64,000 bases of DNA from an uncultured Verrucomicrobiae bacterium. GTDB lineage: Bacteria > Verrucomicrobiota > Verrucomicrobiia > Chthoniobacterales > Terrimicrobiaceae. Where the stretch lies: positions 160,001-224,000 of the forward strand of contig CAVPOC010000002.1 in NCBI GenBank assembly GCA_963706955.1, written 5' to 3'. How positions within the stretch are numbered: the first letter of the stretch is position 1; each line of letters begins with the position of its first letter. The position numbers and the translations under genes were made by a program. Below are positions 1,871 through 54,520 of this stretch, in pieces. The notes under the pieces are model-generated. The model was not told the origin of the DNA, did not search any database, and worked only from the letters and a program-made list of their open reading frames with translations.

Positions 1871-2338
1871 GGGGAGCACACCCGTCCCCGGGTGTGATTA
1901 GCCGGCGTCTCGCCGGACAATCTTTAGCAAGAGATTGAGGAAATTGGTGGGCTTTTTTGGCCGACATACCGGTTTCTTTCTTTGGGCTCTCAGCTACCGA
2001 TTCTAGCACTCGGCAGAGACGCCGAGCGCCACACCCGGGATTCGCCTAGGAGACTGTTGAAGAACTCACGCATGTCACGCGCGAGCTCTTTGGGGTAGAT
2101 ATCGGTGAAGCGACGAAGGAGCATCCCCTCAAGGGCTGTAACTGAGGAGCGACGCCGAAAGGTGCCCCAAAGAGTTCGCGCCCTCCGGGTTGCGCTAATT
2201 TTCGGCCCTCGCGGTGTCGCCAAGCTTGTCCGTAGCACTGCGGCTACGACCTGCGCTTGGCTCCTTGCGATCTTCCGAAAATTGGCAGCAACGTGGCATA
2301 CGTGAGTTTTTCAACAGTCTCCTAGGCGAATGCTCCCC
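1871..2338. repeat. GGAG-type REP-like inverted pair; the right arm is interrupted by a MITE
   Basis: Left arm GGGGAGCACACCCGTCCCCGGGTGTG...CCGGCGTCTCGCCGG (1871-1916). Right arm (2011-2049 plus 2326-2338) reverse-complements to GGGGAGCA..TCCCGGGTGTGGCGCTCGGCGTCTCTGCCG. Confidence 0.55.
2050..2321. mobile_element. MITE (non-autonomous IS derivative), short 272-bp variant
   Basis: 30-bp imperfect TIR (27/30) GAGACTGTTGAA(G/A)AACTCACG...; CTAG duplicated at 2046-2049 and 2322-2325; no transposase; near-identical copy at 53336-53692. Confidence 0.9.
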
Positions 2339-34745: not shown

Positions 34746-35810
34746 ATGAATGGAAGAATCGTCGGCCTGATCGCTTGCGCTGTGTTTCCAGCGAGCCTTT
34801 TAGCGGAGCCCTTTGAGGAGGCCCGCGTCACCGAAACTGTCAAGATTGTCTCCCTCCTGCAACAATTGCAGAAGCCTCAGCCGGCCGTGATTGGCGACGT
34901 CATTAAGGGGCAAACTGCTCTCAAAACCGGAGGCGAGTCTCGTGCTGAGCTTAAATTTCCAGACCTCACGATGACTCGGGTCGGAGCTAATTCGCTCTTC
35001 CGATTCTATGCGGGGGGACGCGATATGGCCCTGGACGGAGGAACCATGCTCTTTTATTCCCCGAAAGGTACCGGCGGAGGTAAAGTGCAGGCGGGTGCGG
35101 TTACGGCGGCGGTTACTGGATCGGCCATCATGGTGATGAATTTGGGGCCCACAATCAAGGTGGTTTGCCTGGAGCACGCTGCGGTGGTTTCGGGCCCGGG
35201 CTTCACCCGCAAGATCCGCGCGGGCCAGGTCATCGACCAAACTGGGAAAGTGACTAACATCAGCCTGCAGGCCCTCGCCAAGAGTAGCAATCTCTGTAGC
35301 GGGTTCTCCACGGCGCTTCCTTTCTCGATCAAGAATTACCGCTCGCCGGAATTGAACTTAAATCTCGATACCAACGTTGATCAGACCGGCCAGGTTGCGC
35401 GGCGCACAATCGACCGCGATCAGCAGAGTGCACTGGTCAATAATCCGCCGGTTCAGTCTCAATCGGGATCCCCGAGGTCCCTTCCGATCCCGGTTGTCTC
35501 CCGTTCTAACGGCTCCGTCTCTCCGCCTCCTGCTCCGCCAACTGATCAACCTGGTTCGCCACCTGATCAACCTGGTTCGCCACCCGGTGAGCCTGGTTCG
35601 CCACCCGGTGAGCCTGGTTCGCCACCCGATCGGCCTCCAACTGTGGAGCCCGGCCAGCCAGGTGATGGTCAGCCAGATAAGCCTCGGCGAGGGAACCGCG
35701 GTAACATCAAGAACAACGAGAAGCGCGGCAACAGCGGCAATAATCGCAGCAACATTAAGAATGTGGAGAACCGGGGCAATAGCGGGAATGCTCCAGGGCG
35801 AACAAGGTGA
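34746..35810 (+). CDS. Secreted FecR-domain protein with Pro-rich and Asn/Gly-rich low-complexity tail
   Basis: Signal peptide; L.TG..SRAELKF.D.T.TRVGANS.F...L..GT.L; AAVTG; C-terminal repeats. Confidence 0.8.
   Translation: MNGRIVGLIACAVFPASLLAEPFEEARVTETVKIVSLLQQLQKPQPAVIGDVIKGQTALKTGGESRAELKFPDLTMTRVGANSLFRFYAGGRDMALDGGTMLFYSPKGTGGGKVQAGAVTAAVTGSAIMVMNLGPTIKVVCLEHAAVVSGPGFTRKIRAGQVIDQTGKVTNISLQALAKSSNLCSGFSTALPFSIKNYRSPELNLNLDTNVDQTGQVARRTIDRDQQSALVNNPPVQSQSGSPRSLPIPVVSRSNGSVSPPPAPPTDQPGSPPDQPGSPPGEPGSPPGEPGSPPDRPPTVEPGQPGDGQPDKPRRGNRGNIKNNEKRGNSGNNRSNIKNVENRGNSGNAPGRTR
35544..35627 (+). repeat. 21-bp coding tandem repeat x4
   Basis: GATCAACCTGGTTCGCCACC(T/C) x2 then GGTGAGCCTGGTTCGCCACCC x2, encoding DQPGSPP/GEPGSPP. 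Confidence 0.9.
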
Positions 35811-44615: not shown

Positions 44616-44675
44616 GTCGGGCGTTTGCGGCAAGCGCCCAGCGAACCCCACAGGCGCTTGGCACAAGCGCTCTCC
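44616..44675. repeat. Degenerate copy of the 204-264 REPIN
   Basis: GGGCGTTTGCGGCAAGCGCCCAGCGAACCCCACAGGCGCTTGGCACAAGCGCTCTCC aligns with 204-264, including the AGCGAA spacer. Confidence 0.7.
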
Positions 44676-51827: not shown

Positions 51828-53207
51828 CTAGAAGTGTATCGCGTGGCCGTGGGAGGCATGGGCGGCCTCGTGGACGGCTTCGCTCAGAGTGGGATGAGCG
51901 TGAATGGTGGCGGTGATTTCCTCGTAAGTTGCCTCCAACGAGATCGCCAGGCCCAGTTCGGCGATCATTTCTGTCGCGTCGGCGCCGATGATGTGGGCGC
52001 CGAGAATTTCGCCATGTGGCTCGCCCACGAGGAGTTTCACGAAACCGTCTGGCTCCCCGACCGCCAGAGCTTTGCCACTCGCCAAAAATGGGAACTTGCC
52101 GACCCGATACTTGAGGCCCTTATCCTTGGCTGCCCGCTCGGTAAGTCCCACGCTCGCGACCTGCGGCTGGCAATAGGTACAGCCGGGAAATGACTCTACT
52201 CTCCGGGGCTTCGTGACACCGAACATACCTTCGACAGCTTGAACTGCCTCAAAGCTGGCCACATGGGCGAGCCAGGGCGGACCGATGATGTCTCCCGCAG
52301 CATAGACTCCCTTTAGGCTCGTTTCGTAGTTTTCGTTCGTCGTGAGCCAACCCTTTGGATCGGTTTCAAGTTTGGCGCCCGCCGGAAGGAGGGGACTGAC
52401 TCCAATCGCCACCAACGCGATGCTGGCCTCGACCGTCTCCGAGCTCTTGCCCGAGAGCGTCAGCTTCACGCCCCGGTTAGTCGTTTCAGCTTTCTCCACC
52501 TTGGTGCCCGCGAGAATCTTGAGCCCCTGCTTGGTAAGAGATTTCTCCAGAGCGACGCTGACCTCGGTATCCTCCACCGGAAGAACGTTCGGCAACATTT
52601 CTATCACCGTCACCTTGGTGCCGAAGGCGTTGAAAAAGTAGGCAAATTCGATGCCGATCGCGCCAGCTCCGATAACAATAATATCCTTGGGCTGCTCGGG
52701 CAACACCATCGCCTGTTTGCTGCCGATGACGGAGGTTCCGTTGAAAGGAAATCCTGGCATCTCTCGGCTCACGACACCGGTGGCGATTAGAATATTCTTG
52801 CCCTTGATCTCCTTCTTCTTCCCGTCCTTGTCAGTCGCCTCAACCACACCGGCCTTGGGAATGGCGGCAGTCCCGCGCAGGTAATCGATCTTGTTCTTCT
52901 TGAAGAGCATCTCGATGCCACCGGCGAGCTTGTCGGCAACTCTCCGGCTGCGGCCGATGATCTTGTCCCATTCGAAACTCACTCCATCGATCTTCAGGCC
53001 GAAATCGCCCGCATGGTGGGTCAGCAGCTGATAAACCTCCGCGTTCTTGAGGAGAGATTTTGTGGGAATACAACCCCAGTTGAGACACGTTCCGCCCGCC
53101 CGATCCATCTCCACGCAGGCGACCTTCTTGCCAAGTTGCCCGGCGCGAATTGCTCCGACATATCCGGCTGGTCCGCCGCCAACAACAATCAAATCATAAT
53201 CGGCCAT
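51828..53207 (-). CDS. lpdA: Dihydrolipoamide dehydrogenase (E3)
   Basis: GGGPAG, GGTCLNWGCIPTK, GAGAIG, HAHPTLSE. Confidence 0.97.
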   Translation of the reverse strand: MADYDLIVVGGGPAGYVGAIRAGQLGKKVACVEMDRAGGTCLNWGCIPTKSLLKNAEVYQLLTHHAGDFGLKIDGVSFEWDKIIGRSRRVADKLAGGIEMLFKKNKIDYLRGTAAIPKAGVVEATDKDGKKKEIKGKNILIATGVVSREMPGFPFNGTSVIGSKQAMVLPEQPKDIIVIGAGAIGIEFAYFFNAFGTKVTVIEMLPNVLPVEDTEVSVALEKSLTKQGLKILAGTKVEKAETTNRGVKLTLSGKSSETVEASIALVAIGVSPLLPAGAKLETDPKGWLTTNENYETSLKGVYAAGDIIGPPWLAHVASFEAVQAVEGMFGVTKPRRVESFPGCTYCQPQVASVGLTERAAKDKGLKYRVGKFPFLASGKALAVGEPDGFVKLLVGEPHGEILGAHIIGADATEMIAELGLAISLEATYEEITATIHAHPTLSEAVHEAAHASHGHAIHF

Positions 53208-53335
53208 AACATCATTCTAGTGTTCCGACAGATTGATCAGAATTCCGCCACCAGGGCAAACGAATCTCTTCCGGCGCAGGCGGTTGTTTCCGCCGATGCT
53301 GCGCTTGCGCGCGCACGAACTAGTCGCGCGCCTAG

Positions 53336-53692
53336 GAGACTGTTGAAAAACTCACGTATGCCACGTTGCTGCCAATTTTCGGAAGATCGCAAGGAGCCAA
53401 GCGCAGGCTTGATGGGGTTGCGGGGACCCCATCTCCCCGCAAGCCGCAGTGCTACGGACAAGCTTGGCGACACCGCGAGGGCCAAAAATTAGCGCAACCC
53501 TGGTGGGAAGAAAGGGTCCCACCCCTTTCTGGGCGCGAACTCTTTGGGGCACCTTGGAAGGGTGAGGGGCCCCTTCCCCTCACGGGCGTCGCTCCTCAGT
53601 TACAGCCCCTTGAGGGGATGCTCCTTCGTCGCTTCACCGATATCTACCCCAAAGAGCTCGCGCGTGACATGCGTGAGTTCTTCAACAGTCTC
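53336..53692. mobile_element. MITE, long 357-bp variant (inverted relative to 2050-2321) with three extra cassettes
   Basis: Same 30-bp TIRs; CTAG at 53332-53335 and 53693-53696; extra segments at 53408-53441, 53501-53530, 53555-53584. Confidence 0.9.
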
Positions 53693-54520
53693 CTAGGAGG
53701 CCGAGGGGCTTGCTTGCTGCGTTTTGCGAATCGCTTCTTTGATGCGTTCGACCCGGTTGTCCGGGTCGGGGTGCGTGCTGAGAAACTCAGGCGGCGCGCG
53801 CCCGGCCGCGGCTTTCTTGAGCACTTCCATGACGCGAATGAGCGCATTCGGATCGTAGCCGGCTCGGATCATAAAGCGCACGCCCAATTGATCGGACTCG
53901 AGCTCGTCCCCGCGACCGTAAGCCGTGTTCTTTAACTGGCTGACGAATTGCGCAAGCTGGCCTGCGGTCATGCCATAGTCGGCTCCTCCGGCCATGACCA
54001 CGGCGTTCACCAACCCCTGACTAAGCTGAGCCTTGGCCATCTGCTCATTCGAGTGCCGCCCGACGACATGCCCGATCTCGTGTCCGAGGACGCCCGCCAC
54101 TTCGTCCTCGGTGTCCAGCAATTTCAGCAATCCAAAAGTGATGAATATCTGCCCGCCAGGAAGAGCAAAGGCGTTGACCGTCTCCGGGTCAGCCAGAAGG
54201 TGAAACTGGAAGTAGTAGGGGGTTTGATTGATCTCAGGACTGGCTTGAACGATTTTTTCTCCGACGCTTGTGACGAGATTTTGATAGCGTTCGTCCGGAT
54301 ACAAACCGCCATGCTGCCGAGCCATCTCGGGTGCAGAGTTCAGGCCGAGCGCTATCTCCTCCTTCGGGCTCAGGGCAACTCGCTGGACACGCCCGGTGAC
54401 AGGATTCTGGAACTTCTCGGTTCCGACGTAGTAGCTAATAATGGCGAAGAGGGCCAGCAGGATTCCGATGGTTAATCGACCCCCGCAACCTGGCTGACCT
54501 CTGGAGATTCGATATGCCAT
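53693..54520 (-). CDS. M48 family Zn metallopeptidase
   Basis: NAFALPGG, HEIGH, E.ESD..G, FLSTHP; stop codon lies in the MITE CTAG target site. Confidence 0.92.
   Translation of the reverse strand: MAYRISRGQPGCGGRLTIGILLALFAIISYYVGTEKFQNPVTGRVQRVALSPKEEIALGLNSAPEMARQHGGLYPDERYQNLVTSVGEKIVQASPEINQTPYYFQFHLLADPETVNAFALPGGQIFITFGLLKLLDTEDEVAGVLGHEIGHVVGRHSNEQMAKAQLSQGLVNAVVMAGGADYGMTAGQLAQFVSQLKNTAYGRGDELESDQLGVRFMIRAGYDPNALIRVMEVLKKAAAGRAPPEFLSTHPDPDNRVERIKEAIRKTQQASPSAS

Follow-up and report, generated by a model that had tools for sequence, protein, structure and literature searches.

The cyanobacterial repeats SDR4, SDR5 and SDR6, reportedly described by Elhai et al. in 2008, are said to be units of 21–27 nt that share a fold with compensatory changes, lie inside minitransposons and are nested in themselves. 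The optional inserts of fungal mitochondria known as GC clusters and double-hairpin elements are short, rich in GC and marked by runs of G and C, and some are in frame; these organellar elements consist of nested or tandem hairpins, GC clusters have a short target duplication, and we know of no crossed stems in either type. Small dispersed repeats of cyanobacteria are also mentioned in passages of PMC2884548 and PMC3116915, and SDR5 in HIP1 in a passage of PMC4390886. Passages of PMC10969869 and PMC3733652 describe Rickettsia palindromic elements (RPE) of ~150 bp that are fused in frame into housekeeping genes, while a betaproteobacterial repeat element (BRE) of ~90 bp also forms in-frame gene fusions (PMC3184786, in part). 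Finally, REP/REPIN elements are moved by RAYT, according to passages of PMC3116915 and PMC3733652.

The inserts described here, termed cassettes in the following, lie in a 357-bp MITE at 53336..53692 of the window, by which we mean the whole 64,000-nt stretch of DNA analysed, from an uncultured Verrucomicrobiae bacterium; no strand is assigned to this MITE, its target duplication or its cassettes. The element has the features of a MITE, namely inverted ends (imperfect TIRs of ~30 bp), a target duplication, non-coding sequence and multiple copies (11 in the genome), and 16 of 18 further congeneric genomes contain matches to it. Its 4-nt palindromic target duplication occupies 53332..53335 and 53693..53696, the right copy including the stop codon of an M48-family protease gene (53693..54520, minus strand; BepA/LoiP-like matches below cut-off) that ends at the insertion site; the empty orthologous site (L071) has a single target copy, which reveals the duplication. 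On the left, a dihydrolipoyl dehydrogenase gene (51828..53207, minus strand; TIGR01350 above cut-off), with 96% identity to its Terrimicrobium counterpart, starts ~125 nt past the MITE; this identity assigns the host to the Verrucomicrobiota, as Terrimicrobiaceae-like. Within the bacterium's own genome (92.5% complete), all 11 pairs of MITE ends within 4 kb lie less than 400 bp apart, and no autonomous partner was found. The window also holds a tandem 21-nt repeat (35529–35636) within an ORF (34746–35810) and a two-copy 27-nt palindromic repeat (208–234 and 44619–44645; 89% identity).

The long copy, aligned over 53329–53697, is near-identical to a short copy on the opposite strand (2045..2328, minus) outside three blocks of +30, +27 and +27 nt, with one extra base in a C-run near 53606 and one substitution. 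As a previous sequence-only reading of the window had proposed, the 85-bp length difference is that of three cassettes and one base (30+27+27+1), all three sites being filled in the long copy and empty in the short one (~2246–2249, 2184–2186 and 2157–2158). Cassette 1 (53409..53441) places 33 nt where the short copy has 3 (net +30), cassette 2 (53501..53530) 30 nt for 3 (net +27) and cassette 3 (53556..53584) 29 nt for 2 (net +27), this last being another way of writing an exchange for which, as for the others, a replaced stretch of 3–4 nt had been given. The proposed order A-B-A'-B' is found in each cassette, as two crossed stems of 7–9 bp that can be read from the sequence: A has 8 bp and B 9 bp in cassette 1 (core 53411–53442), and the stems have 7 and 8 bp, respectively, both in cassette 2 (53502–53530) and in cassette 3 (53556–53583). 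For cassette 1, the limits 53408–53441 set earlier correspond to the replaced block, while the stem begins only at 53411; likewise, linkers thought to be of 0–1 nt run from −2 to +1 nt, so that adjoining stems often share bases. Unlike the MITE, the cassettes have no TIRs and no target duplication at MITE, REP or gene junctions, and their closing stem does not exceed 3–4 bp.

The cassettes exceed chance expectation. When the 4.16-Mb genome was scanned for crossed stems of 7+7 bp without regard to sequence, 12 hits were obtained, six of them the MITE cassettes, compared with 2, 0 and 3 hits in shuffles; cores retrieved by the run lengths of their G-run and C-run had both crossed stems, each 5 bp or longer, in 12 of 12 cases in the genome and in 0 of 5 in the reversed genome. 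It had further been suggested that structure is conserved rather than sequence, and the crossed register is indeed kept well above shuffled controls. Scored over the three bases beside the runs, with a one-base shift tolerated, crossed pairing of both stems occurs in 35 of 60 core types (169 sources) and the nested register in 2 of 60, against 2.9 on average and 10 at most over 5000 shuffles in which the 3' halves were dealt among types; this score is not a probability, since the types are related and the shift is allowed, and given their relatedness the shuffles overstate independence. An independent metagenome scan, with stem A and the runs fixed, returned at least 122 stretches. Among the matches listed, those with a 5-nt spacer have a perfect 4-bp variable stem B in 25 of 59 distinct contexts (mean 8.9, maximum 16 over 2000 shuffles), those with spacers of 3 and 4 nt give no persuasive signal (at best 3 of 46 and 0 of 17), and a stricter score, which missed cases because it disallows the common A-C mismatch beside the G-run, reaches 8 of 117 unique contexts with a shuffle maximum of 8. 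Template-switch repair of quasi-palindromes could yield such covariation without selection.

An H-type pseudoknot needs several nucleotides in loop 3 to span stem 1. In intact cassettes, loop 3 measures −2 to +1 nt across a stem of 6–8 bp, and A' and B' often share bases; by established geometry, a complete H-type pseudoknot is therefore unlikely, and the compact version put forward earlier finds no support. A shortened pseudoknot may form. The best fit among the proposed folds is the two-state hairpin: nested folding with ViennaRNA, which cannot model pseudoknots, predicts alternative hairpins within ~1–3 kcal/mol, as RNA or DNA and on both strands. Read as its reverse complement, a cassette keeps the crossed layout with purines first, a symmetry that suits an element acting at the DNA level. 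The covariation in both stems, together with the position of the MITE between two same-strand genes, would also agree with host-selected RNA devices (a pseudoknot switch, a frameshift signal or an exonuclease block) that tune neighbouring genes. We consider this very improbable, given loop lengths that forbid a full H-type pseudoknot, a strain-specific and scattered presence, both orientations, and sites in unrelated genes and selfish repeats. Nor is there an Rfam family, the three matches of an Rfam search (E 1.4–4) all being far below the gathering score, and tRNA, promoter-like and terminator-like sites were looked for with none found.

Whether cassettes are gained or lost can be read from the copies of the MITE. 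From 12 genomes, 61 copies were extracted, of which 53 near-full-length ones were scored and 8 internally deleted ones left out; two automatic calls of the cassette state were corrected by eye. Eight of eight possible combinations were found: 111 in 20 copies, 100 in 12, 000 in 7, 001 in 6, and 110, 101, 011 and 010 in 2 each. In public data, contigs of runs X5 and X6 have cassettes 1 and 3 and those of X15, an RNA run, have cassettes 1 and 2, which is by itself no sign of transcription; site 3 without its cassette and cassette 2 within a foreign flank were likewise seen in contigs of public runs. Cassettes are present in contigs of three runs, and all of this evidence consists of assembled contigs rather than raw reads. 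The sequence-only reading had allowed for precise excision and for a structure-induced sequencing deletion. Cassettes might accordingly be ancestral parts of the MITE, either precisely excised or lost through structure-induced error in sequencing or assembly, and the all-filled state is indeed the commonest (20 of 53, in a sample biased to copies most similar to the long query). This account is scarcely credible and, as a general one, is refuted by the empty orthologues and the public-run contigs. The empty alleles do not vary between genomes and contain 2–5 bases that are absent from filled sites, which excludes precise excision; outgroup genes are empty at cassette sites; and eight states in 12 genomes, with filled and empty forms both present in contigs from other runs, argue against a sequencing deletion as the cause of the short copy.

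On a tree of the cassette-masked backbone, calculated before both corrections, genome identity requires 15 changes (34.7 when shuffled) and the three cassette states 11, 11 and 13 (15.2, 17.9 and 17.7 when shuffled); the backbone itself tracks the genome, and cassette states are scattered on it. We infer that each MITE site was filled once and that copies later exchanged their cassettes; repeated homing into the same sites may also have occurred. An internally deleted form of the MITE, of 213–220 nt and with cassette 1 retained, is recurrent (window 53500–53671; G000 C3:457468; L010, L029, L069, L070), and its joint is also present in a contig assembled from run X6.

The earlier idea of a tiny second class of mobile module is supported; its supposed specificity for the MITE of the window is not, as cassettes also occur in a second MITE family, in a REP-like hairpin and in many coding genes. 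Cassette 2 is present with an identical core, and unchanged, in the second MITE family, which holds two further cassettes and has length steps of 317, 344, 371 and 401 nt. Cassette 3 has relatives in coding genes and in the loop of the REP-like hairpin, where one adds 27 nt in genome G012 and two copies in the own genome add 25 and 26 nt; the latter look decayed. These loops hold the cassette in opposite orientations in the own genome and in G012, which may reflect two insertions or one inversion of the loop. In topB and at one further site, 30-nt units stand in tandem. As to the sites themselves, the REP-like one and site 2 of the MITE are loops, site 1 lies in the arm of a hairpin, and no clear loop is seen at site 3; loops are frequent rather than obligatory targets, and strict hairpin-loop targeting was rejected as a rule.

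Several observations concern the surrounding repeats. In several copies of the REP-like hairpin family (G000 C8:509405, C3:485843, C2:278806 and others), the loop is enlarged by direct duplications of 7–11 nt, and the Y1_Tnp gene C3:270014 is flanked on both sides by blastn matches to the REP-like repeat. One copy of the second MITE family (L452, G009) is interrupted by a REP-doublet-like repeat, and a stretch of ~1.2 kb without a long ORF (L511:480–1660, G270) contains five different cassettes, a possible hot spot.

The insertions into genes, for which names were assigned by Pfam, allow comparison with orthologues, first at nucleotide level. In dnaG of G020, a 33-mer differing from cassette 1 at two positions replaces 3 nt, exactly as in the MITE, and four of four orthologues are empty; in opcA of the same genome, 27 nt are gained, three of four orthologues are empty and the fourth has a different insert. 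At the codon position of the opcA cassette, G272 (L526) carries an unrelated in-frame insert of ~18 nt. Gains of 27 nt are also seen in secA relative to its nearest orthologue, in mutS relative to three congeners, and in a conserved unnamed gene of both G020 and G270. Further afield, in another family of the order, nrdA has gained 30 nt (three of three orthologues empty) and uvrD 27 nt (four of four empty). Protein-level comparison with the own genome gives gaps of 9–11 residues for SNF2, PrmA, UbiD and QueA genes and no clear net gap for IspG, and the junction in one gene appears to combine a +28 with a −1 close by. Cassettes lie in both orientations on coding strands, and each of the six MITE sites, like seven genes, shows a net gain of 27 or 30 nt. 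The in-frame insertions sit in core genes of soil bacteria and are missing from the relatives of these bacteria.

Across genomes, the family is unevenly spread. Pattern matches number 10 in G020 and 13 in G270 (sister genus), and zero in the congeners G271 (76% complete) and G272 (93% complete). The pattern of cassette 1 occurs in 2 of 251 genomes of the order, that of one 27-nt subfamily in 1 of 401 genomes of the phylum, namely the own genome only, and a generic pattern in 47 of 301 order-level genomes, frequently as homopolymer artefacts or at control level. Long poly-G/poly-C hairpin runs, identical in several genomes of the order, were seen in G101, G141, G149, G201, G223, G229 and G694 and look like assembly artefacts. 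In metagenomes, the contexts often adjoin proteobacterial-type genes (MetX/MetW, KdsD/KdsC, MlaFE, a proteobacterial sortase two-component pair), and a FolD beside a cassette is closest to Azoarcus and Paraburkholderia records (~60%); the same variant was found in G170, of the host order. From this neighbouring gene content, we infer that one subfamily occurs in a second phylum, the Pseudomonadota. In several of these contexts (L347, L355–L358, L364, L367, L368, L380, L403, L419), a recurrent intergenic host repeat beside proteobacterial-type genes has a 27-nt cassette variant between short inverted arms; this repeat may be BRE-like, and a search for its empty allele found none. Metagenome arrays of a ~105-nt GC-rich unit with a single hairpin were also noted (L341–L343, L375, L376, L416, L417).

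Plasmid and phage collections gave no match to the cassette region and matched the metagenome variants at chance level only. Viral contigs contain at least 139 stretches of the generic G-run/C-run pattern; the 80 listed, scored on the plus strand (79 matches), are nested palindromes or homopolymer artefacts rather than crossed, and were set aside. The subfamily patterns gave 11 hits there, by eye without a clear second stem, and 0 hits, respectively. Three viral contigs of 41–49% GC (L162, L163, L172, L173, L176–L182, L215, L216) each hold 5–8 dispersed copies of a nested, uncrossed G-run/C-run palindrome with shared flanking words.

For the cassettes, the comparisons establish gain, insertion polarity, the absence of target duplication, a short replacement at most junctions, with counts of replaced bases derived from alleles that have drifted, and net lengths divisible by three; neither an insertion as it happened nor an intermediate was seen. 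We have little doubt that they are a family of non-autonomous mobile DNA elements of 27 or 30 nt with two crossed stems, and we think it probable that they spread by copying at the DNA level. Taken as a whole, the explanation we favour, with reasonable rather than strong confidence, is a mobile crossed-stem family copied in from folded single-stranded DNA. The donor would be a folded single strand, copied in by way of a few bases of microhomology at a nick or at an exposed single strand, with ~2–5 target bases replaced and no target duplication. Its fold would be the two-state hairpin, A:A' or B:B', each exposing the partner of the other, and since both strands fold alike, either could act as donor. 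A length that keeps the frame has probably been retained because, where genes are dense, no other lineages survive. Once in a MITE site, cassettes would hitchhike on MITE transposition and be shuffled among copies by gene conversion.

A trans-acting strand-transfer enzyme probably acts on the fold, and a HUH/Y1 (RAYT-like) protein is the leading, though weak, candidate. Y1_Tnp matches number 14 and 8 in the two cassette-rich genomes versus 2 and 3 in two congeners without cassette matches; the profile is found in six of six genomes tested, cassette-free ones included. No enzyme can be tied to the cassettes, as none of the 16 fetched Y1_Tnp loci (4 of 4 in the own genome, 12 of 30 in five relatives; flanks of up to 1.5 kb) and none of five fetched reverse-transcriptase loci is flanked by one, and neither the Y1_Tnp nor the RVT_1 profile singles out an enzyme. 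That a Y1 enzyme specifically is responsible is a tentative suggestion.

Such cassettes might instead spread as the same mobile family without any dedicated enzyme, the fold stalling replication, host repair capturing short folded fragments by 2–5 nt of microhomology, and quasi-palindrome template switching keeping both stems perfect. Short replaced flanks without target duplication, the few bases that donor and recipient flanks have in common, the lack of an enzyme gene adjoining cassettes and the occurrence of tandem copies all agree with repair capture. We nevertheless regard it as unlikely in view of the patchy, burst-like spread, with G020 and G270 rich in cassettes and G271 and G272 devoid of them, and of the recurrence, even in non-coding hosts, of a net 27 or 30 nt, which is not expected of ordinary repair. 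Somewhat less likely still is an RNA-templated route, in which fold-bearing transcripts of MITEs or mRNAs would be reverse-transcribed and the cDNA converted into new sites. The empty MITE has a strong RNA fold (z −9.3), contigs with cassettes are present in one RNA run (which does not prove transcription), and both cassette-rich genomes have RVT_1 matches; however, genes hold cassettes in both orientations, the architecture is the same on both strands, G272 has a reverse transcriptase yet no cassette matches, the own genome has cassettes but no reverse transcriptase, and the five reverse-transcriptase loci adjoin no cassette.

Beyond the favoured reading, copy-in from folded single-stranded DNA, we put forward a more speculative one, to which we give clearly less than even weight. 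The crossed-stem fold itself might be the substrate of an undescribed insertion machinery, and the cassettes a distinct minimal mobile class in at least two phyla: the linear form of a single-stranded circle of 27 or 30 nt that would fold as a dumbbell with complementary loops and be cut and copied into new sites, thereby adding loops of 9–10 residues to essential enzymes.

Transposase-free movement of DNA units below 50 nt is an open question, which the cassette family makes testable: it offers a 27–30-mer whose covarying fold is defined, filled alleles with their empty counterparts in both repeats and genes, and bursts in some genomes to be set against cassette-free close congeners. It further provides a concrete source of insertions of 9–10 residues in SecA, primase, helicases and ribonucleotide reductase, and an example of an element parasitising MITEs and REP-like repeats.

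The family is real and apparently undescribed. In line with the initial impression that this was no recognised system, no description was found in the literature searched, beyond which subscription journals and supplements may contain one, and passages of a bioRxiv manuscript (10.64898/2026.10.21.760802) contain nothing relevant to the cassettes. Like the fungal mitochondrial inserts, cassettes are short, GC-rich and optional; unlike them, they are bacterial and have crossed stems. With RPE and BRE, as these appear in the passages cited above, they share dispersal and in-frame positions in unrelated housekeeping genes; their 27 or 30 nt do not match palindromic units of ~150 and ~90 bp, and they differ in their crossed stems and in parasitising other repeats. 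Judged by the same kind of passages, they resemble REP/REPIN elements as GC-rich, non-autonomous units of the 20–40 nt class with a single-strand fold, in hosts with Y1_Tnp genes, but they have no GTAG/CGTC tetranucleotide tag and no simple hairpin, are often intragenic and do not cluster at Y1 genes; moreover, a REP-like hairpin is a target of their insertion and not what they themselves are. From SDR4/5/6, compared by description only, they differ in phylum, in their G-run/C-run core, perhaps in the crossing of their stems, in the lack of a single target word such as HIP1, and slightly in size, 27–30 nt being at or just above the 21–27 nt given for those repeats. As far as the traits described go, the likeness is nevertheless close: cassettes, too, are tiny, without transposase, dispersed, apparently mobile, polymorphic between relatives, located in minitransposons and found in tandem or nested. 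By this analogy, the cassettes would work like the small dispersed repeats of cyanobacteria.
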